A stretch of 24,000 bases of DNA, taken from Oscillospiraceae bacterium. GTDB taxonomy: Bacteria; Bacillota; Clostridia; Oscillospirales; Ruminococcaceae. Each line of letters opens with the position of its first letter. Position 1 is the first letter of the stretch. The translations under genes were made by a program, and so were the position numbers. Location of the stretch: assembly GCA_036635475.1 (NCBI GenBank), contig JAVWQH010000014.1:26594-50593 (forward strand), read 5' to 3'. Below are positions 7,834 to 23,232 of this stretch, in pieces. The notes below the pieces were generated by a model. It was not told the DNA's origin and searched no databases. It was given only the letters and a program-made list of their open reading frames with translations.

Positions 7834-7852
7834 AACCGCATAATAAACCACT

Positions 7853-8036: not shown

Positions 8037-8039
8037 GTA

Positions 8040-8590: not shown

Positions 8591-8613
8591 AAAAATTATA
8601 TGGAGGGCATACA

Positions 8614-8883: not shown

Positions 8884-8984
8884 CACCCTGATGAGTCGCT
8901 GAAAATTGCGACGAAACTATCTATAATGACAGTCGGTGCATACAGATTTACACAAAATATAAAACACATTAGGAGGATTTTATT

Positions 8985-9818: not shown

Positions 9819-9892
9819 ATTAAGCTTGGCTTTCTGAGCCGTTTGAGCCATCAATCAAGCGGTATCCAACTATATCAAATTATATAAATACG

Positions 9893-9921
9893 TTGACAAA
9901 TTGGTATACTAGTAGTATTAT
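9893..9921 (+). promoter_or_regulatory. sigma-A-type promoter
   Basis: TTGACA (9893-9898), a 17-nt spacer, then TATTAT (9916-9921). Confidence 0.7.
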
Positions 9922-9977
9922 AAATAGTACAAGAGGAGTTTTCTTTGTTGTGATTGATTGCCTCCAATTGTCGGTTA

Positions 9978-10006
9978 TGGCGTTCCGTAAAAACGCCACT
10001 ATTTTT
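9978..10006 (+). terminator. leader hairpin plus U-run (possible attenuator) in the 5' UTR of the RHH gene
   Basis: 7-bp stem TGGCGTT (9978-9984) / AACGCCA (9992-9998), followed by CTATTTTT. It lies between the predicted TSS (~9928) and the ATG at 10020. Confidence 0.4.
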
Positions 10007-10019
10007 CAGAGGTGATAAT

Positions 10020-10202
10020 ATGGCAAGAAAATCATTCAATACTCCGATGGATGAAGATTTAGCTAATCAGCTAAGGCGAATTTGCAAAGAGAGAGATATT
10101 CAAATTACAGATGTAATTACTGCATTAGTGACAGCATATGTCAATGGTGATATAGATTTTCAAAAAAAAACAACTTATGAAATTAGGAGGACTGACATTT
10201 GA
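10020..10202 (+). CDS. ribbon-helix-helix (CopG-like) DNA-binding protein
   Basis: AGAGGTG SD 5 nt before ATG 10020. MARKSFNTPMDEDLANQLRRICKERDIQITDVITALVTAYV fits an RHH fold. The track start at 9954 (TTG) has no properly spaced SD. Confidence 0.75.
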   Translation: MARKSFNTPMDEDLANQLRRICKERDIQITDVITALVTAYVNGDIDFQKKTTYEIRRTDI

Positions 10203-10582
10203 ATTATGAGGATTTTGATATGGATGGACTTGATAAGGATGTTCAATTTGACGCATTTTTAGAATTACTAAAAGAAAAAAGTGAAATATCAAGCGTTATG
10301 ATTATAAATCCAGAACGAATCAAAATAATGAAGAAAGCTTTTTTGGGGTTGCAGCAACTTGTATTGTCAGAAACACCTGACGCAAAAATAATCTGCGGTA
10401 TTCATGAATCAAACAATAGTGTTGGATATATTATGATTGAAACAGATGAAATTATTGTTAGGGATATTAAAACATTTTTAAGTAGTATGGAGTTTGCTTC
10501 AAACTTTGAAATTTATCCCATAAAAAATAATCTTATCAGATTTTCAATTATGTTTTATGGTGTTATGACAGAAATAAAATAA
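10199..10582 (+). CDS. hypothetical acidic protein (127 aa), translationally coupled to the RHH gene
   Basis: The TTG start overlaps the upstream TGA (TTGA), with AGGAGG 8 nt upstream. An alternative start is ATG 10220, with GAGGA 8 nt upstream. Confidence 0.7.
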   Translation: MNYEDFDMDGLDKDVQFDAFLELLKEKSEISSVMIINPERIKIMKKAFLGLQQLVLSETPDAKIICGIHESNNSVGYIMIETDEIIVRDIKTFLSSMEFASNFEIYPIKNNLIRFSIMFYGVMTEIK

Positions 10583-10606
10583 TCTAAAAACAAACAAATA
10601 ACACTT

Positions 10607-10647
10607 AAAAGTCGTTACCTAAATTTATAGGTAACGACTTTTTATTT
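10607..10647 (+). terminator. strong rho-independent terminator
   Basis: A stem of 12+ bp (AAGTCGTTACCT / AGGTAACGACTT) with an 8-nt loop, followed by TTTTTATTT. Confidence 0.85.
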
Positions 10648-10783
10648 GAAATTATTTAAAATTATATTAACAGCATCATTAATTAGCCGAGCGAAAAAGT
10701 CTGCACTAACGACATATCTTGAAAAATGTTTAAAAGAATTGGACTTTACAACAATTTCATATTCAATATCATTAACGCAAACA

Positions 10784-10808
10784 AAATATTCTATCGGAAG
10801 AAATAATA
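10784..10808 (+). repeat. dispersed 25-nt motif, copy 3 (inverted relative to copies 1 and 2)
   Basis: AAATATTCTATCGGAAGAAATAATA. Its reverse complement is 24/25 identical to 5391-5415. It ends 1 nt before the -35 TTGACA at 10810. Confidence 0.85.
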
Positions 10809-10809
10809 G

Positions 10810-10838
10810 TTGACAAACAAAACTAAACAGTATATACT
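10810..10838 (+). promoter_or_regulatory. sigma-A-type promoter
   Basis: TTGACA (10810-10815), a 17-nt spacer, then TATACT (10833-10838). The track ORF start at 10810 is the -35 TTG. Confidence 0.7.
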
Positions 10839-10863
10839 ACAAAAAACTATGGAGGTGAAAAAT

Positions 10864-11139
10864 ATGCGATTATTAAAAACTATTCTACACGAAATAGCGA
10901 TAATATTATTATGTGTAGGATTTATAATGGCTGTTGGTACTGCAGGCAGTTCAGATTGTAATACAATATCGGATACACAATTTTACGCTCAAATACTGTT
11001 TACATTTATGTTGTTTGGATTAAGTGCAATTTGCAATATATCATCAATGCTAATACCTTCACAAAATGACGAGAGTGAAGCTCATAGTAATACATATTGT
11101 AAAAACATAGGATATTCTAATTATAACAGCAATTTATAG
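10864..11139 (+). CDS. small membrane protein (two predicted TM helices)
   Basis: GGAGGTG SD 6 nt before ATG 10864. The hydrophobic stretches are ILHEIAIILLCVGFIMAVGTAG and AQILFTFMLFGLSAICNISSMLI. Confidence 0.75.
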   Translation: MRLLKTILHEIAIILLCVGFIMAVGTAGSSDCNTISDTQFYAQILFTFMLFGLSAICNISSMLIPSQNDESEAHSNTYCKNIGYSNYNSNL

Positions 11140-11145
11140 TATAAT

Positions 11146-11175
11146 TATATTCTATAGGAAGAAATAATATAAAAA
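11146..11175 (+). repeat. dispersed motif, copy 4
   Basis: TATATTCTATAGGAAGAAATAATATAAAAA is 22/24 identical to copy 3. It also shares the AGAAATAATATAAA extension with copies 1 and 2. It sits between the stop at 11139 and the next start at 11189. Confidence 0.8.
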
Positions 11176-11188
11176 GTAGGTGTTTTTA

Positions 11189-11392
11189 ATGAAAAATTTG
11201 AAAATGAAAAACTTGAAAACTGTCAGAGGGCAGTCTGTCCGTATTGCACAAGATAAAAATGGCTTGTTCTCCATTGAGCTTTATGCAAATGGAAAATGGG
11301 AAATTCCTGCAAGCGGATATAATAAAAAGTTTAAAACTGCAACTGAGACAGAAGAGTTTTTTGAAGAAAATAGGTGCTGTATCCACAGCTAA
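11189..11392 (+). CDS. hypothetical protein (67 aa)
   Basis: AGGTG SD 6 nt before ATG 11189 (the track starts at GTG 11180). The 5' end carries a 15-nt tandem duplication (MKNLK-MKNLK). Confidence 0.6.
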   Translation: MKNLKMKNLKTVRGQSVRIAQDKNGLFSIELYANGKWEIPASGYNKKFKTATETEEFFEENRCCIHS

Positions 11393-11441
11393 ATTAAAAA
11401 ACATGAAAAAACATACATTTGAATTGTGAAAGGCGGTTACT

Positions 11442-11666
11442 ATGGAAAAATTCATCAAAGAACAAACAACAGGTTCTTATACAACAGAACTTGCCAATGG
11501 TATTAATTACAGATTTTACACTACGAATGACGGATGGATTGCGGTTATAGAAATGCATCCATATCAAGGAATGTTGCCCATTACGCAAGCGAAAGATAGA
11601 TCTAAGGCATTATCATACATAGCAATGATAGAGCCTGTTAGTATACCTGCACAGGTATTGTGCTAG
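11442..11666 (+). CDS. hypothetical protein (74 aa)
   Basis: GAAAGG SD, co-oriented with neighbours. The overlapping minus ORFs 11186..11458 and 11394..11588 lack signals. Confidence 0.6.
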   Translation: MEKFIKEQTTGSYTTELANGINYRFYTTNDGWIAVIEMHPYQGMLPITQAKDRSKALSYIAMIEPVSIPAQVLC

Positions 11667-11681
11667 ACGGAATTAAATTAA

Positions 11682-11708
11682 TAATCAATGAGGGGTTTGC
11701 TGTGCATT
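11682..11708 (+). repeat. second copy of the sequence found at the 5' edge of the omega-RNA-like region
   Basis: TAATCAATGAGGGGTTTGCTGTGCATT aligns with 16510-16536 TAATCAATGAACAGTTTGTTGTGCATT. That is 23/27 identical, including 10-nt and 8-nt exact blocks. Both copies lie just after a stop codon. Confidence 0.6.
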
Positions 11709-11789
11709 CTCCTGAAACAAATTGACGGCTGCAAGTGGTATGACCTGCCGTTTTGCTATATGCCGTTTTGGGAAAGAAAGGAATAGATT

Positions 11790-11939
11790 ATGGACAAATT
11801 ACAATTGAAAATATGGGATGCTTTATGCGAATTAAGCGGAGAAGAAGTTGCAAGAGTGTTTACTGATTTTTATGGCAATCAGTTATTAGATGATGAATTT
11901 CTTGAATATTTGCAAGAGGAAGAAATTATGGAGGAATAG
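11790..11939 (+). CDS. small acidic hypothetical protein (49 aa)
   Basis: GAAAGGAA SD. MDKLQLKIWDALCELSGEEVARVFTDFYGNQLLDDEFLEYLQEEEIMEE*. The stop lies 3 nt before the next ATG. It is below the track cutoff. Confidence 0.5.
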   Translation: MDKLQLKIWDALCELSGEEVARVFTDFYGNQLLDDEFLEYLQEEEIMEE

Positions 11940-11942
11940 ATT

Positions 11943-12794
11943 ATGTACACAATAGGAACTTTAAAAGAAATAAACCAGCAATATGACCATAATCACGGAC
12001 TAACTCAATCAGATGTAAATATGGCAAACACATATGTTGACGTTATCCAACGGAGTCGTACTGATAATCAAATTCAAGTCGGAGATATTGTTGAATTAAC
12101 AACTAAACATGGAGATTATTATAAAAAAGCACATATTGAATCCTATAATGCTGAAACCAGCAGTTGGTCTGTATGTCAAGAAGCGTACACACCGTTTGTG
12201 ATCTTTAATAGTGGCAAAACCAATATTATCTGTAATACATCAGGCGGAGCTTGGAGTGGCGTTCCAAATAAGTTAACACTTATCGGAAAACGATTAAAAT
12301 TATTTTGCGATTGGGGAAATTGTGGGGCGTGTGGAAACGGAGCAGTTAATTTTCAAGCAGAGGTTAATGTCTGGGAATATTCAGAGCCTAATAGATTGTA
12401 TGGTGAATTTTCAACGAAAGATTTTAATAAAAAATATATCTCTTACTGCGTTGATGAACACGGTCAACCTAAAGATGGAAGTCAATACAGATATTTAGGG
12501 GATGGCATTGCTTTCACTAATCGAAATGAATATGAAGCTTGGTTAAAAACATATAAGGGCGTTGAATTTAAAGGCAATTGGGAAAATCAAACGGTTGTAT
12601 TCCTGTATAAGGAAAACTCACATCTAATTTCAGAAGTAGATTGGGACAACTTAAATCTTCCGGTAGATAGTAGAATGTGTAATGGCACAATTCTTGTTAA
12701 AGTGAAATACGACGACGAACAGCATGTCATTGAAACATATCGTTTTACAAATGATGGAAGCAAATATCGTGGAGTATATCAAGTATATATGTAG
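11943..12794 (+). CDS. hypothetical protein (283 aa)
   Basis: Long ORF tightly packed in the operon, with GGAGGA upstream. No family is recognised with confidence. Confidence 0.8.
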   Translation: MYTIGTLKEINQQYDHNHGLTQSDVNMANTYVDVIQRSRTDNQIQVGDIVELTTKHGDYYKKAHIESYNAETSSWSVCQEAYTPFVIFNSGKTNIICNTSGGAWSGVPNKLTLIGKRLKLFCDWGNCGACGNGAVNFQAEVNVWEYSEPNRLYGEFSTKDFNKKYISYCVDEHGQPKDGSQYRYLGDGIAFTNRNEYEAWLKTYKGVEFKGNWENQTVVFLYKENSHLISEVDWDNLNLPVDSRMCNGTILVKVKYDDEQHVIETYRFTNDGSKYRGVYQVYM

Positions 12795-12831
12795 GCAAGA
12801 CAGATGAAGTGAAAGAATAGGGGGTTAAATT

Positions 12832-13155
12832 ATGACATTCAAAACAGAGTTTACAGATAAAGAGATAGATAATGCAACACTGAAATTTTCATCGTGGTGG
12901 AGGAAGAATATTCAAGTGCGGAATAAGAAAAATTCACATTCAACGGTTGATATTTTTGGACTACCATATACCTCGTCTGGAGAGTGTGCTGGGCTATGGA
13001 ATACAAATGCAGACAATATGTACCTTTACGATGAAGATTATCGTTTTGATGCATTGCTCATAACTGTAAAAAATGAAGTTATGGTTATGTTAAAAACTTG
13101 CAATGACAAAATTCAATATATTTATATTGGAAACTTAAACAACAAAGAATCATAG
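12832..13155 (+). CDS. hypothetical protein (107 aa)
   Basis: GGGGG SD 8 nt upstream, co-oriented with neighbours. Confidence 0.7.
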   Translation: MTFKTEFTDKEIDNATLKFSSWWRKNIQVRNKKNSHSTVDIFGLPYTSSGECAGLWNTNADNMYLYDEDYRFDALLITVKNEVMVMLKTCNDKIQYIYIGNLNNKES

Positions 13156-13199
13156 CATTGGCAATTAAGATTTACAACAATATAGAGGATATTTAAAAT

Positions 13200-14228
13200 A
13201 TGAAAGATACACAAAAAATAGTTGATAAAATTCAAAAGCAGATTGAAAGCACAAAAAAGAAAATTGAAGCATTGTCTGGTGATTACCAAACAAATACATA
13301 TAAAAGAATGCGAGAAAAAGACAGCCGTGACGCTAAAATAAGCGGATACAGGATTGATATGGATATTCTAGGATACCTATTGAATAAGGCGACATCCGAC
13401 GATATAAACCAACTTGAAATTTCCTTGATAATAAAATCATTTAGAGATTATTTACATACTTGCTATTTAACTCATAAGCGTTTTATTGATGGTTCACCGC
13501 ATGCTCAAGATGTTAAGTTTCCAGAACCATCAAGTAGTTGTGCTGATTGGTATAACAAAGAACAAGTTCCAAAAGAACAATCCATTTTAAAACGTGCAGA
13601 CATCTATAACACAATAGACCTTATTTCAGCGGTAAATATCTATGGTGAGATTTTAGAAAACTCACATAAGCCTGTTGACCAAACAGTTCTAAAAATCAAA
13701 AAGTTAGAGCGTGAGTGCAAGATGATGCAGAAAGGTGACATCAATTTTACGCCAAGCAAAGTGGCTACAAGGCTTGTTGAGATTGCAGGCATACAATCCA
13801 ATGATACAGTATTAGAGCCATCAGCAGGCATAGGATCAGTTGCAGACGCTATTCGTACAGCAACAGATAACATTGATGTTGTAGAGCAGATGTCAAGCTT
13901 TAGAGAGCTACTGCAACTAAAGGGATACAACTTGGTGGGCGATGATTTCCTGCAATATCAAACCGATAAACAGTATGATGTCATTGTTGCAAACCCACCA
14001 TTTTCAGATGAACAAAATCACGTCAAGCATATGTATGAATTGCTAAAGCCGGGTGGAAGATTGGTTACAATTACATCACCTCATTGGACTTTTGCAAATG
14101 ATAAAAAGTCGGTTGATTTCCGTAATTGGGTGGAAGAACAAAATTCATATACCGAGAATTTAGAAAGCGGCACTTTTGAAATGACAGGCGTTGCAAGTAA
14201 AATTCTTGTCATTGATAAAGCAAGTTAA
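13200..14228 (+). CDS. SAM-dependent N6-adenine DNA methyltransferase (orphan, no cognate nuclease in view)
   Basis: Motif I is VLEPSAGIGSVADAI and motif IV is DVIVANPPFSDEQ, about 55 aa downstream. The N-terminal ~190 aa is coiled-coil or unknown. Confidence 0.75.
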   Translation: MKDTQKIVDKIQKQIESTKKKIEALSGDYQTNTYKRMREKDSRDAKISGYRIDMDILGYLLNKATSDDINQLEISLIIKSFRDYLHTCYLTHKRFIDGSPHAQDVKFPEPSSSCADWYNKEQVPKEQSILKRADIYNTIDLISAVNIYGEILENSHKPVDQTVLKIKKLERECKMMQKGDINFTPSKVATRLVEIAGIQSNDTVLEPSAGIGSVADAIRTATDNIDVVEQMSSFRELLQLKGYNLVGDDFLQYQTDKQYDVIVANPPFSDEQNHVKHMYELLKPGGRLVTITSPHWTFANDKKSVDFRNWVEEQNSYTENLESGTFEMTGVASKILVIDKAS

Positions 14229-14249
14229 AAAGGAATAGAGGTTGTTACG

Positions 14250-14696
14250 ATGAAACTACAATATATTGGAGTAGACGATTGGAATTTACATACTTACAAA
14301 GATGAAAGCGGTAGATTTTGGAAAGATGATACACCGTTTCAAGAAGCTTACGTTTCTTTGTATAGTGTAATTCCAAATGCTTATGATGGAGAACTTGCAC
14401 ATCCTCTAAGTCAAATTTGCAATAATAAAAATATCGAAATTGAGTTTATAGGAGGGCGGGTTATAGATAGTCCTTATAAACGTGATTATATGCTTCTAGG
14501 CAGGCTTCAATCGGATTGTGAATATTATTTAGGCTATGGGAACAGATACGCTGGTCATTTATGGGCAAAAACAGTAGAAAAACAAATTGAAAAAATGAAA
14601 GAATTATGGAATAGTTTTCCCAAAAACGGAAAACCCGAATGGTTGACTTGGAAGCAAATATTGGAATACGAAAAACAAATGACAGCAAAGGAGTAA
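14250..14696 (+). CDS. hypothetical protein (148 aa)
   Basis: GAGGT SD. The C-terminal half (MLLGRLQSDCEYYLGYGNRYAGHLWAKTVEKQIEKMKELWNSFP...KPEWLTW) resembles domains seen in phage and conjugative-element accessory proteins. The family is not named with confidence. Confidence 0.75.
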   Translation: MKLQYIGVDDWNLHTYKDESGRFWKDDTPFQEAYVSLYSVIPNAYDGELAHPLSQICNNKNIEIEFIGGRVIDSPYKRDYMLLGRLQSDCEYYLGYGNRYAGHLWAKTVEKQIEKMKELWNSFPKNGKPEWLTWKQILEYEKQMTAKE

Positions 14697-14702
14697 ATAA
14701 TT

Positions 14703-14876
14703 ATGGAAAAATTATATTGTCCGTATTGCGGAGAACTGTTAGAAAATAATTGCGGTTGCGAGCGAGAAATTGCAGAGCAGCAAGAGGAATTAGTTGCGGA
14801 AATAGAAGAACGCCAACATCAAAGTGGATTTTACGCATTTCAAGATGTAATGGAAAATTGGCGTAATGAAAGATAG
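14703..14876 (+). CDS. small zinc-ribbon-like protein (57 aa)
   Basis: MEKLYCPYCGELLENNCGCEREIAEQQEEL... has CxxC...CxC. The ATG lies 4 nt after the upstream stop, with the upstream gene's terminal GGAG serving as SD. It explains why only spurious minus ORFs (14701..14904, 14790..15014) appear in the track here. Confidence 0.55.
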   Translation: MEKLYCPYCGELLENNCGCEREIAEQQEELVAEIEERQHQSGFYAFQDVMENWRNER

Positions 14877-14906
14877 GATGGAGTACTGGTAAAGGAGCAA
14901 ACAAAA

Positions 14907-15089
14907 ATGTACTACAGCATTTACGGAATAAAAGACTGCGAAGTAAAACTCGTATTTAGAAGTATCACTATGGGAGATTTCAACCGGCGAGGGAGAAAAA
15001 ATGCCGAGCAGCACGGTTACAGTAATTTCACCGCCAAAACCATTCCAGAGATAGGCAACGGTTGGAAAAGTGAAACTGTTAGGCTGTGA
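14907..15089 (+). CDS. hypothetical protein (60 aa)
   Basis: AAAGGAG SD 8 nt upstream. Confidence 0.55.
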   Translation: MYYSIYGIKDCEVKLVFRSITMGDFNRRGRKNAEQHGYSNFTAKTIPEIGNGWKSETVRL

Positions 15090-15123
15090 TATTTTAAATT
15101 AAAATTTAAAGGATGAAACAATT

Positions 15124-16104
15124 ATGACAACTTTAAAACAAACAATATTTGATGACATAATCGAAAGCATTGTGCCACGTTTAACATTAACCAGATGCAA
15201 AAATTCTAATCAAAAAGTATTCTTGGTGGCTAAAGACGACAATATTATACTAACAGATGGAAGTTTAAACAATTATTATGCATCAATACCGCATGAAATT
15301 AATTACAATAATGAAATGCAAAAAATTCACGGCAACACGAGAAATAGTCTTGCCAAAGAATTTATAAACAGCTATCCAATAGATTATATATTGCAACTAG
15401 AATCAGCCTTTATCGTTCAAAAACAAGCAGAAGAAAAACAATTTAAAATTGAGCAAAAAGAAATGGAACGGATATATAACGATGAGATATTGCCACTATT
15501 CAAAGATACAAGACTAAACAAACAGCCTGAATATAATGTATGGTGGGGAAATTGTGAACCATTAATTCAGTTTGAATGTAAATTTGAAAATCCGCTATCT
15601 CGTTGGAATGGCGAATATACAAATAAAATAGAAGTATTTTTTGACAATCATTCTTTGAATAAATTTGCTATATTAACAGGAATAAAATCAGGACGTAGCG
15701 ACAGGGTAAAAGGATTGTCAATCGAAGAAGTAAAGGCAGAGTGTTACCGTATTATTTCAGAATGTGAAGATGCTCTACAGGTTTACAATAATAGACTTAA
15801 AGAAGCAAATGATAAATGGGAAGAAGAAATGAGGTTATCCCACTTTGCCTCTGAAATTTATTATGATAAAGAAAAAGTAACAATATTGCGAAAGAAAAAT
15901 AACTTTACTGTAGTTGGGAATAGAATGAAATTCTCTACAGGTACAGGGAAATGTGGTAAATACTACGATACATCTGTTTCTCAAATCATGGACATGATTA
16001 AAGACAAAGGCTATACAGAATATTATCAGGAACCAAGAGAAGTATTTGAAATGAGAAATGACGAAGCACTCTGCAAATTAGAGTGGAGTAAAGTACCAGC
16101 TTAA
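15124..16104 (+). CDS. hypothetical protein (326 aa)
   Basis: AAAGGA SD and a long ORF. No recognisable motifs. Confidence 0.8.
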   Translation: MTTLKQTIFDDIIESIVPRLTLTRCKNSNQKVFLVAKDDNIILTDGSLNNYYASIPHEINYNNEMQKIHGNTRNSLAKEFINSYPIDYILQLESAFIVQKQAEEKQFKIEQKEMERIYNDEILPLFKDTRLNKQPEYNVWWGNCEPLIQFECKFENPLSRWNGEYTNKIEVFFDNHSLNKFAILTGIKSGRSDRVKGLSIEEVKAECYRIISECEDALQVYNNRLKEANDKWEEEMRLSHFASEIYYDKEKVTILRKKNNFTVVGNRMKFSTGTGKCGKYYDTSVSQIMDMIKDKGYTEYYQEPREVFEMRNDEALCKLEWSKVPA

Positions 16105-16134
16105 TTTAAGACTTTTTGAAAGGACGTATAAATT

Positions 16135-16512
16135 ATGAATGATACAGCGGTGAAACTATTTGTTGAACAAATTAGAGAGTCACGACCAATTGATGAGCTG
16201 ATTAAAATTGAAAACTTTAAAATTGGCAACAAATACACTGGATATTTATATGCTTATCATACAGATGTAGGTGTGCATATTGATACTGGCGTAAGCTCTG
16301 GCAAGCCATGTTTTAAAGACTTAGAGAATTACAGTGACATGTACTGTAATCATACGTTGCACGAATATTTGTATCAAAGTGCAGTTGATGATACTGATAT
16401 TACTTTAGAATCAAGGGTAGAAGAATTACTACAAAAAACTTTAGCTCAATTAATTATATTAGAACCAGTTCAAAAAGAATGTATGAAAAATAACAAAAAA
16501 TCAATATTGTAA
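16135..16512 (+). CDS. hypothetical protein (125 aa)
   Basis: GAAAGGA SD, co-oriented with neighbours. Confidence 0.75.
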   Translation: MNDTAVKLFVEQIRESRPIDELIKIENFKIGNKYTGYLYAYHTDVGVHIDTGVSSGKPCFKDLENYSDMYCNHTLHEYLYQSAVDDTDITLESRVEELLQKTLAQLIILEPVQKECMKNNKKSIL

Positions 16513-16775
16513 TCAATGAACAGTTTGTTGTGCATTTTGAGTAGTAAATGCTCCGTGAATTTCACGTACAACAATAGCTTGAGTCTTAGCTGACTACGTT
16601 GGATATAATATCACACCATAGAATGATGCTCTAGTTCTATGCAACTGTGCAGGCTCTGTAAAAGTCTTGAAAAATGACGAGGCGGTCAACCTGATTTGGA
16701 GATTTAATCTCAAATTATTTCCAACATTAGCGAAGGGCAACAACTCTGAAAGGAGAACGAAACTTGAGAGTATTC
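16513..16775 (+). ncRNA. omega-RNA / HEARO-like structured RNA upstream of IscB (exact 5' end and guide not determinable)
   Basis: A 251-nt ORF-free gap that abuts or overlaps the IscB start. GC is 40% in 16621-16680 by hand count. Helices: 16525-16533/16566-16574 (9 bp), 16617-16623/16635-16641 (7 bp) and 16699-16703/16707-16711. TTGTTG (16525-16530) can alternatively pair with CAACAA (16738-16743) next to the SD, which would form a pseudoknot-like fold. Confidence 0.6.
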
Positions 16776-18053
16776 GTTAAAAATCAAAGAAACGAGCCGC
16801 TTATGCCATGCTCAAATAGAAAAGCAAGAAAATTATTAAAAGAAAATAAAGCAAATATAATAAACTACAATCCTTTTACAATTCAATTATTATATTTTAC
16901 AGGCGAAACTAGACAAGAAATAAATGTTGGAGTTGATACTGGTGCGAAATATATTGGGATTGCAATCACATCGTATGACAAAATTTTAGCAAAGGGAGAA
17001 ATTGAACTAAGACAAGATATATCGTCTTTGTTAATTACAAGATCTGCACTAAGAGGCTCTCGTAGGAACCGAAAGACACGTTATCGCAAAGCAAGATGGT
17101 TGAACCGGAAAAGACCACTTGGGTGGGTTCCACCAAGCGTCCAGAGCAAGCTAAATTCAACATTTATGTGGATTGATAGGTTTGTATCGCTGGTACCTAA
17201 TGCCCAATTGAGCATTGAAGTTGGAAAATTTGACATTGCGAAAATGATTAATCCAAATATAGAAGGTGATGATTATCAAAATGGAGATACATGTGGATAT
17301 TATAATGTAAGGTATTTTGTGTTTGCGAGAGACAACTACACTTGCCAAGTGTGTAAAAAGAAAAATAAAATCTTAAATACACATCACATTTTATATCGTA
17401 CAATTGGAGGTACAAACAGGGCTAATAATTTAATAACGGTTTGCACCGATTGCCACACAGCAGAAAATCACAAATGCGGTGGCGTATTACACAATTGGAT
17501 GTTAAAAAAGAAAAAAGTCAAGAGATACAAAGAAGCGACGTTTATGAATATTGTAAGAAAGCGAATTTTTGAAAAATACCCTAATGCAAAAATCACTTAT
17601 GGATCAGAAACTTCTCCAAAACGAAAAAAGTTACAGTTAAATAAAACACATTACAATGATGCAATTGCAATTTGTGGGATTAATCAAATTAAACTTAATA
17701 TAGACGATTATTTTTATTATAGACAATTCAGGAAAAAGAAACGATCGTTGCATGAAGCGACACCGCGAAAAGGATTAAGCAAAAAGAACACAAGTAGTTT
17801 TAGGAACACTAAGAATGTAAAATTTAGAAACGGATATCATTTAAACGACAAAGTAAAATTTGAAGATCAGATTGGATGGATATCTGGGTTTTCAAGTAAA
17901 GAATGTTTTTTAAGAGATATAAATGGAGAAATAATTAAGACGAAAAGACGGAAAAACAATATAAATGTAAATATGAAAGAAATAGTGCTCGTTACTCATA
18001 ATAATGGATGGATATGCACAAACAAAGTATCTAAATAGACTGTGGTTTAATCA
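16516..18053 (+). mobile_element. possible non-autonomous IS200/IS605-family IscB element (no TnpA); boundaries speculative
   Basis: TAATCA lies immediately left of the RNA region (16510-16515) and again at 18048-18053, 10 nt after the IscB stop. In both places it is followed by (A)TGAA. The element is inserted between two SD-led operon genes. Confidence 0.25.
16764..18038 (+). CDS. iscB: IscB-type RNA-guided nuclease (PLMP domain, split RuvC, bridge helix, HNH)
   Basis: TTG start with AGGAG 8 nt upstream. Motifs in order: EPLMPCSNRKARKLL (PLMP), GVDTGAKYIGIA (RuvC-I), RGSRRNRKTRYRKARWLNRKR (Arg-rich bridge / RRXRR) and SIEVGKFD (RuvC-II). These are followed by CQVC...THHILYRTIGGTNRANNLITVCTDCH (HNH), THYNDAIAI (RuvC-III) and a C-terminal beta-rich tail. 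All catalytic residues appear intact. Confidence 0.85.
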   Translation: MRVFVKNQRNEPLMPCSNRKARKLLKENKANIINYNPFTIQLLYFTGETRQEINVGVDTGAKYIGIAITSYDKILAKGEIELRQDISSLLITRSALRGSRRNRKTRYRKARWLNRKRPLGWVPPSVQSKLNSTFMWIDRFVSLVPNAQLSIEVGKFDIAKMINPNIEGDDYQNGDTCGYYNVRYFVFARDNYTCQVCKKKNKILNTHHILYRTIGGTNRANNLITVCTDCHTAENHKCGGVLHNWMLKKKKVKRYKEATFMNIVRKRIFEKYPNAKITYGSETSPKRKKLQLNKTHYNDAIAICGINQIKLNIDDYFYYRQFRKKKRSLHEATPRKGLSKKNTSSFRNTKNVKFRNGYHLNDKVKFEDQIGWISGFSSKECFLRDINGEIIKTKRRKNNINVNMKEIVLVTHNNGWICTNKVSK

Positions 18054-18075
18054 TGAAAATTAAGGAGATAAAACT

Positions 18076-18405
18076 ATGAAAATTACAAAAAATCATGCAG
18101 AAGGATTTACGTTAGACGGTGTTAGAATTACAAACAATGGCATAAATGATGTGGTATCGCTTTCTTATAATGAGATGTGGCACATTTTTAATCATATGCA
18201 ACGGATAAATATTAAACAGCAATTTGAAAGCTATCTTGAATTGCGTAAAGATAGCCCCGATTATTTTGACGAATTTGGCAGAACAGCAGAAAATATGCTG
18301 GCAGATAAAGAATTATTAGACAACTGCGTTGAAGATATTAACGATGGCAGCTATGGGGATATTGATGACGATGATATTTATAGACTGCTTCAAAGATATG
18401 CTTAA
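18076..18405 (+). CDS. hypothetical acidic protein (109 aa)
   Basis: AAGGAG SD 8 nt upstream. Confidence 0.75.
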   Translation: MKITKNHAEGFTLDGVRITNNGINDVVSLSYNEMWHIFNHMQRINIKQQFESYLELRKDSPDYFDEFGRTAENMLADKELLDNCVEDINDGSYGDIDDDDIYRLLQRYA

Positions 18406-18475
18406 CAATGATTAGAAATCCACATCAACTAACGTTTTGATATTGAACAAAAAATAAAAAGGAGAAAACAATAAA

Positions 18476-19567
18476 ATGAAATTTACAATAAATACATATG
18501 ATTTTAAATCAGCAATGGAGAAAGCATACAAATGTGTCAATAAAAAGAGTGCAATGCCAGCATTACGAAACTTACTATTACATATTGAGAAAGGCAACAG
18601 TTACATAGTCGGCACAAATCTTGATAACTGGGTAGTTTCAAATGTACAAATCGACAATGTAGTAGAGCCGGCAGATATTGTTTTCGGAGATACAGACTCG
18701 CTGTTTAAAGCAATGAAATTCTTCAAGGGATTTGAGATTTCCTTTGACGTGCAAGACAGCAAAGTGGTTATCAGTTGCGGTGGGAAACAAACATCACAGA
18801 TATTCTCGGATAAAGACGAGTTTCTTCCAATACCCGAAATAGATATGGCAACAGCACAAGAATATAAATATAATATCAAAGACCTAAAAGAGCGTTTTAA
18901 TCTAGTCAAGTATGCAACAAGAAAAGACAATGTGAAACCAATCTTTACAGGTATACACTTTGACGGTACCAATATGGTTGCTCTTGACGGGTACAGAATA
19001 GCCATGAATACATCTAATGAACTTAATGTATCTGTACCATTTACGGCTCAATTAAACGGCTTGGCGTTGATGTGTGACGTGCTTAATAGGGATATAAACA
19101 TAGTGACAAACAATAAGTATATCAGCGTTTCTGATGGCGATACAACTGTAATGAGTAGACTGTTTGAAGGTGTTTATCTTGATTATAAGCAAGCAATTCC
19201 AAACAATGAAAATGAAGTGCAGGTTGATATGGCGGAATATTCAGAAACACTAAAATATTTTAAAGCGTTCAAAAAGTCTGGCAACAAGTGTCAAATAATT
19301 GCGTGGCTCAATGATAGTTTAATGTTACTTGGAACAGATAATTGTAGTGAGCTTAGCACACTTAAAGGGGAATTCCAAGACGCAATTGGATTCAACAATC
19401 AATATATGCTAGATGCCTTGACGCAATTCAAAGCGGAAAATGTAAAGTTTAATATGAGTAACAGTGTTACACCTATTGTTATCAGAGATGATGAGGGCAA
19501 TTTGGCATTAGTGTTGCCTATAAGACTTGCCGACGAAGTAGACGATAAAATGAAAAAATCTGCATAG
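18476..19567 (+). CDS. dnaN: DNA polymerase III beta subunit-like sliding clamp
   Basis: 363 aa, the length expected for a clamp. MKFTINTYDFKSAMEKAYKCV...PALRNLLL, KPIFTGIHFDGTNMVALDGYRIAM, RLFEGVYLDYKQAIP and TPIVIRDDEGNLALVLPIRL match conserved DnaN blocks. AAAGGAG SD. Confidence 0.8.
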   Translation: MKFTINTYDFKSAMEKAYKCVNKKSAMPALRNLLLHIEKGNSYIVGTNLDNWVVSNVQIDNVVEPADIVFGDTDSLFKAMKFFKGFEISFDVQDSKVVISCGGKQTSQIFSDKDEFLPIPEIDMATAQEYKYNIKDLKERFNLVKYATRKDNVKPIFTGIHFDGTNMVALDGYRIAMNTSNELNVSVPFTAQLNGLALMCDVLNRDINIVTNNKYISVSDGDTTVMSRLFEGVYLDYKQAIPNNENEVQVDMAEYSETLKYFKAFKKSGNKCQIIAWLNDSLMLLGTDNCSELSTLKGEFQDAIGFNNQYMLDALTQFKAENVKFNMSNSVTPIVIRDDEGNLALVLPIRLADEVDDKMKKSA

Positions 19568-19609
19568 ACGTAAATTTATTAATGAATTTTTATAAGGAGA
19601 AATAAAAAA

Positions 19610-20134
19610 ATGAGAACATATACATTGGCACAATTAAAAAGAGATTGCAAAGCCAAGATACTTAAAGCGGAAATGACTATTAGGTGTGGTGACACGGACA
19701 TTCCCGAACGATTACAAGGGATTAGACCATTGGTTGACAGCAATTCTGTAGCTATATTTTTTCTTAACTCGGATGGAAAACAATCGGAAATGCAAATAAA
19801 AAGGTCAAAGCTTGTAGAGTACACAGACGATACATTGACCATATTCTACCCTGCAAAAAGAGATTTTAATGAAAAAGAACAGAAAATCATGGATGGTTGG
19901 AATAAAATTGCAAGTACGGATGAATACAAGCAACGCTCTGATATGGACGCTTTAACAGATGGCTCATCTACATATTATCAAGAAAAGGCATATTTTGGGG
20001 AAAGCGAATGCCCGTATTTATTTGGATTTGAAGAAAGTTGCGGTTGCAAATATGACATCAATAGCAAAAAAATCGTAGATTATTCCTTGAAAAGCGATGA
20101 CATTGAAATGCAGTACAAATTGTACAGAAATTAA
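19610..20134 (+). CDS. hypothetical protein (174 aa)
   Basis: AAGGAG SD. The minus ORF 19579..19842 is a shadow. Confidence 0.8.
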   Translation: MRTYTLAQLKRDCKAKILKAEMTIRCGDTDIPERLQGIRPLVDSNSVAIFFLNSDGKQSEMQIKRSKLVEYTDDTLTIFYPAKRDFNEKEQKIMDGWNKIASTDEYKQRSDMDALTDGSSTYYQEKAYFGESECPYLFGFEESCGCKYDINSKKIVDYSLKSDDIEMQYKLYRN

Positions 20135-20151
20135 GATGGAGGCTAAAAGTT

Positions 20152-20457
20152 ATGGCTGTTTCCAGACAAGAACGATTAGTTAAATCGTGGGTTAAAAACG
20201 ACAATCTGTCGCTGATTGATATGTACAACAAATGTTATGAAGAAGGTTGGATGGATTATCTTGTGGGAACACAAGAAGATATCAGAGAATTTATTGCTGA
20301 TAAAGTGCGCAACGGAGATTGCCCTTGTGCCAAAACTCTTGCCGACATTGAGAGCGATACAAGAGCAGAGCTGTTTAAATTTGATGCTTCGTGTTGGGGC
20401 TTTGGTGCAGCACCGATTTATGATAAAGAAGAATTAGCTGAAGCAATGGGATATTAA
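20152..20457 (+). CDS. hypothetical protein (101 aa)
   Basis: GGAGG SD 9 nt upstream. Confidence 0.75.
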   Translation: MAVSRQERLVKSWVKNDNLSLIDMYNKCYEEGWMDYLVGTQEDIREFIADKVRNGDCPCAKTLADIESDTRAELFKFDASCWGFGAAPIYDKEELAEAMGY

Positions 20458-20482
20458 ATGAGCAGGAAAGGAAGGTTTTATT

Positions 20483-20662
20483 ATGTTGACAAACAAAGTT
20501 ATTGAAAAGGCAAGAAAACAAATGTTTATAATAGCTCAAAAATATAGTGTTTCTGAAAACAGTGTTATTTGGATGGGCGATGATAAATTTACAGTCGTTA
20601 AGGAGGGGCAAGAAATAGTTATAAGAATAGATGAAAATAACGAATTGTGGAAAAAAATATAA
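20483..20662 (+). CDS. small hypothetical protein (59 aa)
   Basis: GGAAAGGAAGG upstream. MLTNKVIEKARKQMFIIAQKYSVSENSVIWMGDDKFTVVKEGQEIVIRIDENNELWKKI*. It fills an operon gap and is just below the track cutoff. Confidence 0.55.
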   Translation: MLTNKVIEKARKQMFIIAQKYSVSENSVIWMGDDKFTVVKEGQEIVIRIDENNELWKKI

Positions 20663-20686
20663 TTAATACGAAAGAGGTATTTTATT

Positions 20687-20917
20687 ATGACTGATGAGTT
20701 TAGATATAATACAGAAGAAATGGTTTTAGAAATGGCAGACTTGGTGCGAGAATCAAGGTATTTACGGAAAGAAAATGAAAGGCTAAAAAATATCGAAACA
20801 CAATACCGTGAGCTTATTCATCAAAGAATGGTTGATAGCGAAGAACATTCTAAGGCTATGTTAGAAATGGCATTTATAATATCAGATGCAGACACAAAAT
20901 TAGAGGTGGTAAGATGA
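20687..20917 (+). CDS. hypothetical coiled-coil protein (76 aa)
   Basis: AAAGAGG SD. Confidence 0.7.
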   Translation: MTDEFRYNTEEMVLEMADLVRESRYLRKENERLKNIETQYRELIHQRMVDSEEHSKAMLEMAFIISDADTKLEVVR

Positions 20918-21192
20918 GAACAAAAATTTTAAATAAAGCCAAGCTTGTTGTTACGGTAGAAAGCAATAAAAAATCACGAGAAATTATAGCAATTTCTGTA
21001 TTTGATAATAGAACAAATGAATATTTACCAAAGGAATTTATTAAAGAGCGTGGTATTGAAAGTTTTTTAAATTTAGATGATTTAAAGGAAACATTGAACT
21101 GGAATTTAAATGGTGACAGTTCAAAATATCAATTTAAATGGGGACAATCTAATAAAGAATTTTCACAAGGTCAAGCTTATATTTTTAATTAA
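20914..21192 (+). CDS. hypothetical protein (92 aa)
   Basis: ATGA start/stop overlap with the upstream gene, with GAGGTGG SD. Confidence 0.7.
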   Translation: MRTKILNKAKLVVTVESNKKSREIIAISVFDNRTNEYLPKEFIKERGIESFLNLDDLKETLNWNLNGDSSKYQFKWGQSNKEFSQGQAYIFN

Positions 21193-21215
21193 GATGAATT
21201 TCAGTTTTTATATGC

Positions 21216-21245
21216 AAAAAAAGACTGAAATTAATCAGTCTTTTG
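21216..21245. terminator. bidirectional terminator between convergent genes
   Basis: 8-bp stem AAGACTGA (21221-21228) / TCAGTCTT (21235-21242). It has an A7 run upstream and TTTT downstream, and overlaps the last codons of the minus-strand XRE gene. Confidence 0.7.
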
Positions 21246-21491
21246 TGGTGTAAAGTTTGGGTCGTCTGAACGTCCTACGAGATAATCAAGTGAAACTTCA
21301 AAATAATTTGCAATTTTAATTAATGCGTCAAGACTCGGTTTCTTATTTCCATTTTCAAAATTTCCAATAGTCGCTTTAGTTGAATTAATTTCACTGCCAA
21401 GTTTTTCAAGTGTTAAATTTTTAGATTGCCTTAAAGTTTTTAGTCTTTCGGCAAAAGTAACCTCATTAAAATAATAATAGTAGTAAAACAT
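21231..21491 (-). CDS. XRE-family HTH repressor (cI-like, short)
   Basis: GAGGTGA SD. FAERLKTLRQSKNLTLEKLGSEINSTKATIGNFENGNKKPSLDALIKIANYFEVSLDYL is a canonical HTH_3 domain. It is divergent from a second XRE gene across an operator region. Confidence 0.85.
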   Translation of the reverse strand: MFYYYYYFNEVTFAERLKTLRQSKNLTLEKLGSEINSTKATIGNFENGNKKPSLDALIKIANYFEVSLDYLVGRSDDPNFTPQKTD

Positions 21492-21504
21492 TTTAAATCA
21501 CCTC

Positions 21505-21533
21505 TTGACAAAAGTATTCAAATGGAATACAAT
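21505..21533 (+). promoter_or_regulatory. sigma-A-type rightward promoter of the switch
   Basis: TTGACA (21505-21510), a 17-nt spacer, then TACAAT (21528-21533). Confidence 0.75.
21514..21530. promoter_or_regulatory. operator O1, GTATTC-N5-GAATAC
   Basis: Perfect 6-bp inverted arms. It lies inside the promoter spacer and overlaps the -10. Confidence 0.7.
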
Positions 21534-21541
21534 ACAGTTAA

Positions 21542-21560
21542 GGTATTCAAACAGAATACC
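21542..21560. promoter_or_regulatory. operator O2, GGTATTC-N5-GAATACC
   Basis: Perfect 7-bp inverted arms, with its centre 29 bp from O1, in the early transcribed region. Confidence 0.7.
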
Positions 21561-21584
21561 AAAGTCCATTAGAAAGGAGTATTA

Positions 21585-21779
21585 ATGAGAAAAACAAGAT
21601 TGGCAACTTTACGGCAAGAAAATAAATGGACACAACAAGAAGTTGCCGTAAGAATAGGGATAAGCAAATCTGCCTATTCAAACATAGAAACAAAAAAACG
21701 CAATCCATCAATTAAAGTGATAGTAAAGTTGCAAAACTTGTTTGATGAAAGCATAGATAAATTGCTAGGAACAATTTAA
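21585..21779 (+). CDS. XRE-family HTH protein (Cro-like)
   Basis: AAAGGAG SD. LATLRQENKWTQQEVAVRIGISKSAYSNIETKKRNPSIKVIVKLQNLF is an HTH_3 domain. Confidence 0.85.
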   Translation: MRKTRLATLRQENKWTQQEVAVRIGISKSAYSNIETKKRNPSIKVIVKLQNLFDESIDKLLGTI

Positions 21780-21829
21780 TGCTTAATCAGATTATATCAT
21801 TTCTAATGTAAAAAAGAAAGGTGTAATTT

Positions 21830-22549
21830 ATGAACCAAGAAATTAAAAAAATCAAATTTGGAGAAGACGAGCTTCTCGGAGTAAAAACAGATGACGGTCA
21901 AGTATGGCTAGCGGTGAGAAAAGTTTGTTTAGATATTGGATTAACCGATAAGCAGACTCAAAGGCAAGTAGCGAATATTCAAGATGATTTGGTGCTTTCA
22001 AAAGGGTACTCAAATTTGGGTATCCTTACAAACGGCGGTAAACAGAATATGGTGGTCATTAAAGAAGACTTTGTAACACTTTGGCTTGCAAAAATTTCTT
22101 TAACTCCGGCTATGCAAGAAAAGACACCAAAAGCAGTTGAGAAACTTGTTGCATATCAGCTCAAGGCTCAAAAAGTCCTTCACGAAGCGTTCACATCAAC
22201 TGAAGAAAAGAAACAGGACTTTTACTCAACGCTTGGAATTGAGGGAAAGATTGAAGAATTGTCAAGTGAAATGGCGGGACTTACTGAACAGGTAACTCTA
22301 CTAATTGACAGTGCAACTATCAATAGTAGACAGGCACAAAAATTGCTTGAAGTCGCAAGATATAGAGTGAAAAGCTTGCTTGGAAATGTTGATAGTATTG
22401 AGTACAAGAAAAATGCAAGAAAATATTTCAAACGTATGTGGAATAATTTTGCGGAGTTCTTTGAAACAAATACATACAAAGACTTAAATCCATTAAATAT
22501 GGATAGTGCCATTGAATATTTGCATCAGTGGAATTTTATTGGGGCATAA
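21830..22549 (+). CDS. phage antirepressor / regulatory protein (BRO-N/ORF6N-like N-terminus, ORF6C-like C-terminus)
   Basis: IKFGEDELLGVKTDDGQVWLAVRKVCLDIGL...NMVVIKEDFVTLWLAKI resembles the N-terminal DNA-binding domain of Ant/Bro-type proteins. It sits directly downstream of the cro-like gene. Confidence 0.55.
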   Translation: MNQEIKKIKFGEDELLGVKTDDGQVWLAVRKVCLDIGLTDKQTQRQVANIQDDLVLSKGYSNLGILTNGGKQNMVVIKEDFVTLWLAKISLTPAMQEKTPKAVEKLVAYQLKAQKVLHEAFTSTEEKKQDFYSTLGIEGKIEELSSEMAGLTEQVTLLIDSATINSRQAQKLLEVARYRVKSLLGNVDSIEYKKNARKYFKRMWNNFAEFFETNTYKDLNPLNMDSAIEYLHQWNFIGA

Positions 22550-22642
22550 GATTTACGGAAAGAGAGTGGGTGTAACAACCCACTGCTCAATCTATATAGA
22601 AGTACGGTTTGCTATTGAAAGTTAAAAAGAAAGGATATTTGT

Positions 22643-22957
22643 ATGTTAATTTATAAGAGAAATAGATTTAAACGATACACATATGACACCGATTCAAAAG
22701 AACTTATAATCCAACCAATGTGGAATGGATGCGCCATTGATGTAAAAAATGTAATGACACATAAAATTTTTACAATATATAAGAAAATGTTTTCTAAAAA
22801 TAATGGATTACGTATTATTGACAGAGATGATAGATGGTTTAAAAATACAAACGAAGGATTGATTGTTCATAACAAAGATACTATGTGTGACTGGTGTATT
22901 TCTAGACATCAATTTGACGGAACTTATTTGGAATTTTTAAATGGTTTTAAAAAATGA
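22643..22957 (+). CDS. hypothetical protein (104 aa)
   Basis: AAAGGA SD 8 nt upstream. Confidence 0.7.
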   Translation: MLIYKRNRFKRYTYDTDSKELIIQPMWNGCAIDVKNVMTHKIFTIYKKMFSKNNGLRIIDRDDRWFKNTNEGLIVHNKDTMCDWCISRHQFDGTYLEFLNGFKK

Positions 22958-22968
22958 GGAGAAATAAG

Positions 22969-23232
22969 ATGACAAGAATAGAGTTATGGAGCTTACACAA
23001 TACAACTAAAACAGCAAACTTATTTTGTAATTTATATGAAAGATGGCAAGACGAAAAAGATTATGAAGACATCGCCGAATATCTAAAAGTGATACAAAAA
23101 AGTATACCAGAAGCCATTAAAATTACCAAAAGACCTTTTAGTGTTATGTGTAAATGCGATGATGGTATTTTGCAAATTGGAATTAAGCGAAAAGGGGAGT
23201 ATATGCAAATATTTGCAAAATCGGTTAAGTAA
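22969..23232 (+). CDS. hypothetical protein (87 aa)
   Basis: AGGAG (22957-22961) lies 7 nt before ATG 22969. The track start at 22954 (ATGA overlap) is an in-frame alternative. Confidence 0.65.
   Translation: MTRIELWSLHNTTKTANLFCNLYERWQDEKDYEDIAEYLKVIQKSIPEAIKITKRPFSVMCKCDDGILQIGIKRKGEYMQIFAKSVK

Follow-up and report, generated by a model that had tools for sequence, protein, structure and literature searches.

How an RNA-guided nuclease gene with no transposase beside it comes to lie, and to persist, inside a phage-like operon is the question raised by a 24,000-nucleotide stretch of an Oscillospiraceae bacterium (GCA_036635475.1, contig JAVWQH010000014.1, positions 26,594 to 50,593), referred to here as the window. 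The nuclease is IscB, which is small, related to Cas9 and proposed as its ancestor. Positions 16525-18038 of the window are an intact IscB/omega-RNA module (an OMEGA system) in a co-directional operon of a phage-like element. An earlier note on this DNA had left a choice between a homing-type selfish insertion and a domesticated nuclease. The first of these is now favoured by inference, with a probability of about 0.55 that the module is a selfish element which spreads or is maintained through homing into alleles that lack IscB, and not through a transposase; domestication becomes a minor alternative. The support counted for homing is the loss of transposon ends across a clade of relatives, the mobility of two of these (L026 and L033; records other than the window are given L numbers), a junction that falls at the scaffold edge, the absence of a promoter or terminator, the phage context, the lack in the window of the end hairpins of a resident IS605 element, the analogy with Staphylococcus phages and the published concept of OMEGA homing.

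The identity of the protein was established by profile searches, structural relatives and alignment of motifs. In order, the 424-aa product carries a PLMP motif (residues 12-15), RuvC-I, an arginine-rich bridge helix (RRNRKTRYRKARWLNRKR, residues 100-117), RuvC-II, HNH, RuvC-III and a C-terminal region of interaction with the transposon-adjacent motif (TAM), which is the full IscB domain order that the earlier note had read from the translation. The IscB, RRXRR and HNH searches that the note had proposed all scored above their curated cut-offs: 2e-55 and 187.6 bits for Pfam RRXRR (cut-off 25), 32.4 bits for Pfam HNH (cut-off 21.4), and 1.2e-104 and 349.8 bits for the NCBIfam equivalog model NF040563, guided_IscB (cut-off 175). 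With phmmer, the solved structures OgeuIscB (7xht/7utn), TbaIscB and HfmIscB were matched at ~1e-28. Residue conservation was read from an alignment of the window IscB with 30 relatives. The RuvC catalytic residues D58 (RuvC-I), E152 (RuvC-II) and H296/D299 (RuvC-III) are kept in 29-31 of the 31 sequences and align to those of OgeuIscB; the HNH residues H207/H208, N222 and H231 are invariant, as are all four zinc cysteines (C194/C197/C227/C230), so that the catalytic D/E/H/D and HNH residues named beforehand are indeed in place. The PLMP motif and the arginine-rich helix are likewise conserved in this alignment. An intact HNH domain with a four-cysteine zinc site is the feature that separates IscB from IsrB, and both are present here. 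The reading frame is thus a full-length, intact IscB RNA-guided nuclease, for which cleavage is predicted. GenBank gives the same protein, from an Oscillospiraceae metagenome-assembled genome (MAG), the name "RNA-guided endonuclease IscB" (MEF9983740.1, MEG3007368.1); the locus adds one IscB to the thousands known, and neither the family nor the name is new.

Directly upstream of iscB, and on the same strand, is an RNA that by homology and covariation is a HEARO-type omega-RNA scaffold. It matches the HEARO model (Rfam RF02033) from end to end with 72.5 bits (E = 1.1e-14, with reporting by E-value), a full-length match that lies under the gathering score, which is exceeded by the relatives L001 (89.6 bits) and L002 (115.8 bits). 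Because its whole core aligns to L001 and L002, the window RNA is treated as a divergent HEARO on the grounds of homology and not of the Rfam threshold. Covariation was assessed on the regions upstream of 25 IscB loci, for which the RNAalifold consensus contains 40 pairs, 24 of them with compensatory changes. These pairs form in 97.9% of the alignment cells, as against 30-45% when the partners are slid, and none of 500 shuffles reached the observed values. The window sequence forms all 40 (40/40); its fold as a single sequence is unexceptional (z = -1.3). The structured RNA that had been proposed upstream of IscB is therefore borne out, the protein matching IscB profiles, the RNA matching the omega-RNA model and the region being both conserved and covarying among relatives.

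The omega-RNA region occupies the 239 nt before iscB (16525-16763), within an intergenic span of 251 nt (16513-16763). As had been noted, this span has no reading frame on the + strand, the only one on the - strand being a trivial 49 aa. The GC enrichment noted for it is real, at 0.40 in 16550-16799 compared with 0.28-0.34 in the flanks, but modest. The first helix varies in step on its two strands across relatives (TTGTTGT/ACAACAA, TTGCTGA/TCAGCAA, TTCAAAG/CTTTGAA, GTCAAC/GTTGAC), and this covariation sets 16525 as the 5' boundary of the scaffold. The 5' TTGTTG had been suggested to pair at long range with the CAACAA near the Shine-Dalgarno sequence (SD) at 16739-16744; the relatives support the near helix, which displaces this pairing. 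Beyond the core, a hairpin with the start codon in its loop is kept by relatives with other sequences (GAATACG/CGTATTC, GCCGGA/TCCGGC and AACACT/AGTGTT, read by eye, the register differing between groups), its upstream strand changing in step with the first iscB codons. In L002, L037 and L041 the hairpin is retained though the open reading frame (ORF) begins 20 nt further on. It is absent from the RF02033 model, which is without downstream structural elements (Meers et al., PMC10055086), and it is probably a 3' extension of the omega-RNA. The coordinates of these and the other features are collected in Table 1.

Table 1. Coordinates of the features discussed; positions refer to the window unless an L number is given.
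Feature	Position	Strand	Details
Upstream gene	16135-16512	+	125 aa (ORF list); stop codon 16510-16512, inside putative guide
Flank direct repeat, left copy	16482-16503	+	TATGAAAAATAACAAAAAATCA; C-terminal coding end of upstream gene
Putative guide	16509-16524	+	16 nt, GTAATCAATGAACAGT; left-flank DNA 5'-adjacent to scaffold; position inferred
Omega-RNA scaffold (HEARO-type)	16525-16744	+	Full-model RF02033 match and covariation
First helix	16525-16533 with 16566-16574	+	Encloses two small hairpins; covaries across relatives
Scaffold core helices	span 16577-16747	+	Consensus fold
SD of iscB	16750-16755	+	AAGGAG; read from sequence
Start-codon hairpin	16757-16763 with 16770-16777	+	TTG start codon in loop
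iscB	16764-18038	+	424 aa; TTG start 16764, TAG stop 18036-18038 (ORF list)
Spacer	18039-18075	+	37 nt from iscB stop to next ORF; SD of next gene AAGGAG, 18062-18067
Flank direct repeat, right copy	18074-18095	+	TATG-AAAATTACAAAAAATCA; covers start codon of downstream orphan gene
Downstream ORF	18076-18405	+	109 aa (ORF list)
Sliding clamp	18476-19567	+	Follows 109-aa ORF
GIY-YIG ORF	3463-4281	-	272 aa; Pfam 8e-8; PHROG homing-endonuclease families 1e-14
IS605-like element	L063 5708-7623	window's -	1.7-3.7 kb left of window position 1; ~18 kb from iscB
Silviavirus filled/empty pair	L067 2202-3763 vs L068 1703-1718		CIFT_MFB_MRSA13 (filled) vs Remus (empty)
Baoshanvirus IscB element	L075 1778-3298		vB_SsapH-Golestan101-M; between RNase H region and phoH

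The left edge of the module can be placed independently by comparison with sequences that lack it. Homologues of the 125-aa upstream gene (56-78% identity) are found on four short contigs, L008-L011, in which IscB does not follow. When aligned at the stop codon, the window reads ATATTGTAA-TCAA-TGAACAGT before the junction and TTGTTGTG after it, and L011 reads ATATTGTAAACCAAATAAACATTTCATAGGG. The similarity of the window to the IscB-less L009-L011 stops at ~16524, exactly where the scaffold begins, which fits a guide of about 16 nt in the left-flank DNA immediately 5' of it. This agrees with what is known of IscB, whose guide directly precedes the scaffold on its 5' side and is not part of the element itself (Meers et al., PMC10055086), and the putative guide obtained by this comparison falls within the region (near 16500-16525) where it had been predicted. 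No second match to it with up to 3 mismatches is present in the 24-kb window.

A guide outside the element needs transcription from outside, and genes upstream of iscB are strongly co-oriented with it (Meers et al., PMC10055086). The shared direction of iscB and its upstream gene is therefore the norm for the family, and not unusual as the earlier note had held. A scan for promoters and terminators between the upstream gene and iscB and around the element gave no signal above shuffles, a result that fits expression by read-through. The idea that the left flank holds a promoter for the RNA was also considered and rejected: the scan was null, ATRRAA is like a -10 box in some loci only, and a start there would give no guide.

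This last motif is shared among left flanks. Left flanks were compared in 11 loci, namely the members of the window's clade (see below) apart from L031, together with L039 and L048. They are otherwise unrelated, yet A-T-R-R-A-A is common at -12 to -7 from the scaffold, as ATAGAA, ATGAAA, ATAAAA or TTGAAA, and lies inside the presumptive guide (16512-16521 in the window region). It stands at exactly -12 in 8/11 loci, the background frequency being 0.02 per position (P = 4e-12, for a motif defined post hoc and loci that are not fully independent). Chromosomal relatives do not have it. In 8/11 loci the stop of the upstream gene lies 11-20 nt before the scaffold. Site preference, processing of the RNA or the way in which the elements were inserted may lie behind the motif, this spacing and the flank repeats described below.

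On the right, the element appears to end within a few bases of the iscB stop, and the TAM should start there. The SD of the next gene begins 24 nt after that stop. No end hairpin of the kind found in insertion sequences (IS) of the IS200/IS605 group is present at the right end of the window element, which folds no better than shuffles (z = +0.8); in several canonical relatives the right-end fold has z between -2.3 and -4.2. The short gap of 37 nt before the next gene, listed among the oddities of the locus, is thus real, and it reflects the loss of the canonical transposon end that is common to a clade of 10 loci. A 21-nt direct repeat brackets the element, its 17-mer core being expected 0.18 times per 24 kb at ≤2 mismatches, and comparable flank repeats occur in L036 (GTTGAAATTTCAACGxTTAT) and L026. 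Attempts to read a TAM from the bases after the stop were abandoned, since the conserved TAR is the stop codon itself and TKTGG, CCACC and CTTAA rest on 2-4 loci each.

That clade emerged from 50 related IscB loci gathered from genomes, metagenomes and IMG/VR. Both transposon ends are seen in the chromosomal relatives (Bacillus methanolicus, Sporosarcina, Domibacillus and others; Bacillaceae). On the RNA side of these, the first helix, GTCAACTA...TAGTTGAC, encloses a hairpin, CCCACCAC...GTGGGG; on the other side a second, similar hairpin is found 20-90 nt past the stop, followed by GACTTCTTGC...GTTAAA. A neighbour-joining tree places the window, L001, L026-L031, L033 and L036 (10 loci, with 65-72% protein identity to the window) in one clade, and here the ends are gone. 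The RNA-side hairpin GTCAACTACCCACC...GTGGGG is absent from the window and from all its clade, whose first helix encloses other small hairpins; the canonical right end after iscB, TTCATCCCCCACC...GGGGGACTTCTTGC...GTTAAA, and its form TTCATCCCCCACC...GACTTCTTGC...GTTAAA are likewise lacking, and the ribosome-binding site of the next gene follows 17-70 nt after the ORF. This classification rests on reading the aligned ends, because ordinary terminators that follow L001, L026 and L033 misled the automated scoring of hairpins.

Elements of the clade consist of the omega-RNA scaffold and iscB only, at unrelated sites that usually lie 11-20 nt after the stop of a co-oriented gene. The clearest sign of movement is given by L026 and L033, in which the elements are 90% identical, the flanks are unrelated and the similarity ends 4 nt past the stop codon; these limits show that the mobile unit is the scaffold plus iscB alone. 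Phage-type neighbours are shown for two members: L026, which lies among tail, integrase and endolysin genes, and L001, which is an IMG/VR viral contig. The clade without transposon ends is apparently phage-borne, and no description of such a phage IscB clade was found in the literature searched.

Among the other related loci, two homologues from Sporosarcina genomes (L019 3001-4278 and L020 3001-4278) have Lys in place of the RuvC-I Asp and Leu in place of the RuvC-III His, with HNH intact. They have no recognisable end in the printed downstream sequence, and the genes downstream are homologous in the two species; these IscB homologues may be RuvC-dead and domesticated. In L035, an in-frame C-terminal zinc-ribbon and RuvC-III part of TnpB (…NTSQICSSCG…CPYCG…DHDVNAAIN) follows at ~4290-4430, right after the IscB stop, and the arrangement suggests an IscB element lying directly against a piece of TnpB.

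A true pair of filled and empty sites was found in a more distant group of phages. A tblastn search of 50,697 phage genomes with the window IscB returned distant IscBs, at 25-42% identity, whose carriers include Clostridium phage c-st, a Clostridioides phage-plasmid and Ralstonia, cyanobacterial and Staphylococcus phages and which are annotated as HNH endonucleases or hypothetical proteins. In the Silviavirus group of Staphylococcus phages, 7 genomes have a 1530-bp insert of IscB and HEARO (HEARO 36.7 bits, E = 5e-6; IscB NF040563 277 bits) and ~40 are without it, the flanks being 97-99% identical. The empty site in Remus reads ACATGACAAATAGTAAAAA/AAAAGGTGATG. In the filled allele, TGACAAATAGTAAAAA is retained on the left beside the scaffold, and the right end reads GGAGATGCTCAATC TGACAAATTCGAAAAA ahead of AAAAGGTGATG. 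The insert therefore ends in a copy of the 16-nt target, TGACAAATAGTAAAAA having become TGACAAATTCGAAAAA, with 3 mismatches made by a synonymous recoding of Ser (AGT to TCG). No end hairpin was seen in this right-end sequence. It also brings an SD and ATG of its own, by which the resolvase gene further down is restored; the start that this gene had before lay within the target. Three mismatches in the target copy, with its right-hand neighbour kept, are what is expected if the nuclease is active and the IscB-positive allele needs protection; on this sequence comparison, the recoded target bears the mark of an active homing nuclease that shields the allele carrying it.

The targets of this insert and of a relative in Baoshanvirus have ATAGTA/ATAGAC at a distance similar to that of the ATRRAA motif described above. 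The Baoshanvirus element has 83% nucleotide identity to the Silviavirus one, lies at a different locus and has an annotated transposase gene 1.4 kb downstream. The only mention found of HEARO in these Staphylococcus phages is as an annotation (PMC13346280). Like the window element, the Silviavirus insert is a phage-borne IscB with HEARO, placed just after the stop of a gene, with the ORF running to the end of the insert; it differs in its true empty site, its recoded target copy, the new start it gives to the downstream gene and a protein identity of ~28%. A degenerate guide copy of this style was sought at the right end of the window element and rejected, as TAATCAATGAA compared with TAATC-ATGAA scores like shuffles (p = 0.37).

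Taken with the family's established mechanism, these observations suggest how the window element may behave. Read-through from the upstream gene would yield an RNA of which the 5' part (~16509-16524) would serve as the guide while the rest folds as the scaffold. IscB with this RNA would then cut double-stranded DNA bearing the left-flank sequence followed by a TAM. Because the scaffold replaces the TAM in the IscB-positive copy, left flank and TAM would stand together only in a copy without the element. In a cell with IscB-positive and IscB-negative phage copies, the empty allele would be cut and repaired from the IscB-positive copy, so that the element is copied in; alternatively, cutting in such a mixed cell could lead to exclusion of the rival phage. 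A rare ectopic insertion would automatically acquire a new guide from its new left flank. Since no transposase-type ends are left, acting as a homing endonuclease guided by RNA would be the element's main means of persisting and spreading. That OMEGA elements may home into co-infecting phages or plasmids has been proposed as theory, and spread of a TnpB element in plasmids independently of TnpA has been reported (PMC13565253). More tentatively, the clade could be a phage-adapted lineage that has shed its ends, has its guide rewritten by each left flank and prefers sites 11-20 nt past a stop at which A-T-R-R-A-A precedes the insertion point by ~12 nt. The insert in Silviavirus would then be an independent example of this way of life; we hold this broader proposal with less confidence than homing itself.

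Several points weigh against the homing explanation. No IscB-less allele of the window's phage locus was found, all contigs with the exact upstream gene carrying IscB, and a 20-mer of the junction had no match in IMG/VR. What is said of the window element's right boundary, of its TAM and of the agreement between its guide and an empty site is prediction, and so are its expression, its RNA ends and cleavage. An Rfam scan of the window at gathering thresholds reported no family, the HEARO gathering score being 83 bits. The Silviavirus IscB is only ~28% identical to that of the window. The start of the element resembles the start of the right flank, in the manner of a transposon-encoded motif (TEM) and its TAM, at 7/8 bases in L026 and L036 (combined p = 0.06, not significant). 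Finally, a Y1 TnpA is encoded ~18 kb away on the same contig, and this makes mobilisation in trans possible.

The search for empty sites was extended in other directions. IMG/VR held no close relatives of the clamp, of a 326-aa gene or of the 125-aa gene, megablast against 50,697 phage records gave nothing, and searches for empty sites of L001 and L026 returned only the same filled alleles. The left-flank relatives without IscB diverge at the scaffold start and do not share the right flank of the window. What follows the 125-aa gene homologue is different in each relative, and the 109-aa gene downstream of iscB has no homologue but itself among 5.8 billion proteins; because that gene is an orphan, no true empty site can be found.

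The TnpA on the contig bears on the strongest of the other explanations, that the module is an ordinary non-autonomous IS200/IS605 (ISC-type) element moved by a Y1 TnpA in trans, with IscB restoring the element after excision (peel-and-paste with restorative homing). No Y1 transposase is present in the window or beside iscB, as had been noted; one lies just beyond its left edge. Record L063, the exact reverse complement of window 1-3961, extends the contig leftward into an IS605-like element with a 141-aa TnpA (L063 5708-6133; Y1_Tnp 1.7e-36, NF033573 4.9e-40), followed by a 443-aa TnpB-family ORF (NF040570 1e-21, below the model cut-off). Its end hairpins, CCCACtcctttaggtGTGGG (L063 5662) and CCAACGcgctttagcCGTTGG (L063 7764), pair as CCCAC...GTGGG and CCAACG...CGTTGG. 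The replicon thus carries two different OMEGA-type nucleases, as judged from their sequences. The lack of an adjacent TnpA, which the earlier note had counted as unusual, is the norm for the family: tnpA is near only ~1.5% of iscB genes (Meers et al., PMC10055086), and few TnpA associations were also seen by Goltsman et al. (PMC9755519).

Besides the presence of TnpA and a TnpB-like gene on the same contig, mobilisation in trans is consistent with the restoring role, which is the established one for IscB (PMC10055086), with the occurrence of clade members at many unrelated sites, for which some insertion mechanism must exist, with the weak TEM/TAM-like resemblance in L026 and L036 and with the different locus of the related element in Baoshanvirus. 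The canonical end hairpins are, however, absent on both sides across the window clade, the right end is unstructured and is followed so closely by the next SD, the hairpins of the resident IS605 were sought across the window and found nowhere, and the TEM/TAM-like resemblance is not significant overall. Of the features of IS200/IS605 elements, related copies at different sites are found at the level of the clade (L026/L033), and end hairpins are missing on both sides. We consider this explanation distinctly less probable than homing, at something like one chance in four.

Alternatively, the nuclease may have been domesticated to serve the phage, by keeping out related, competing phages or by cleaving a target in the host or on a plasmid, and no longer be mobile. 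Its ORF and RNA are intact, and a co-directional operon beside replication genes allows early expression; exclusion of IscB-less relatives would in any case be a by-product of the same cleavage. Against this, the guide region is the phage's own flank and not foreign sequence, close relatives at unrelated sites in other phages show that the lineage is mobile, and there is no fixed synteny, unlike the syntenic, RuvC-dead L019/L020 of Sporosarcina; domestication is therefore unlikely. That the module is a stranded, non-functional remnant that has not yet decayed is very improbable, for although it has no transposon ends, a HEARO score under the gathering threshold and a single-sequence fold of only z = -1.3, its catalytic and zinc residues and all 40/40 covarying pairs are intact, ORF and RNA have both stayed whole in the clade at protein identities of 65-72%, a pattern that implies purifying selection, and the locus is identical in three independent datasets.

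These datasets are the GenBank MAG and two Logan assemblies, in which the locus always has IscB; the window's own element is recorded in a single copy. Its setting is as the earlier note described, in a co-directional operon near a sliding-clamp gene, the ORFs from ~7100 to 23200 all being on the + strand. Annotated genes of the window include Ant-type anti-repressors, a GIY-YIG gene, a replication-initiator-like gene, a sigma/LuxR-like gene, a DNA methyltransferase, LPD11 and the sliding clamp, a set typical of phages or related mobile elements, and because there are no structural genes in the window "phage-like" is a fair label. With the GIY-YIG ORF the window would hold another selfish nuclease, this one protein-guided. 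In the IscB-less L009, a homologue (2-415, 77% identity) of the window's 174-aa gene at 19610-20134 is upstream of the 125-aa homologue and not downstream of the clamp. The region is a mosaic between related phages.

With the characterised IscB/omega-RNA systems (OgeuIscB, 7xht/7utn; GstIscB of the Geobacillus ISGst) the window element shares the domain order and catalytic residues, its D58 and H207/H208 corresponding to the D58/H209/H210 triple mutant of GstIscB, as well as a HEARO-type RNA directly upstream, a guide expected 5' of the scaffold, a co-oriented upstream gene and the lack of an adjacent TnpA; it differs from them in having no IS end hairpin on either side, an end at or near the iscB stop and a phage-like operon as its setting. 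The RNA matches RF02033 over its full length and keeps its helices and bracketed long-range pairing, but scores below the gathering threshold (72.5 < 83), has different inserts in the first helix and lacks the CCCACC...GGTGGG hairpin. With the free-standing homing genes of phages (T4 Seg/Mob, HNH type) it shares a nuclease gene wedged between phage genes without disruption; those genes, set between conserved neighbours, are present or absent between related phages and are predicted to cut the allele without the gene (PMC13565253). Here, by contrast, the target would be read by an RNA copied from the flank, and a new insertion is predicted to retarget itself. In TnpB of TnpA-less IStrons and in the plasmid spread of IS605, propagation of an OMEGA nuclease by homing without a transposase has been proposed or shown (PMC13565253), although the nuclease family and the carrier are different and the guide is at the 3' end.

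The interest of the finding rests on the end-less, apparently phage-borne clade and the testable homing hypothesis, and not on the locus itself. A clade without the ends that a transposase needs keeps its nuclease and RNA intact and appears at new sites. The homing mode has been proposed in reviews and is not documented for IscB in the literature searched. The Staphylococcus phage pair is a ready experimental system, since both are cultured phages and what sets them apart is an IscB insert of 1.5 kb in which the target is recoded, and compact phage IscBs with new TAMs would be of interest as genome-editing tools. Should elements of the clade indeed spread by cutting phage genomes that lack IscB and being copied into them, phage populations would harbour natural gene drives guided by RNA.

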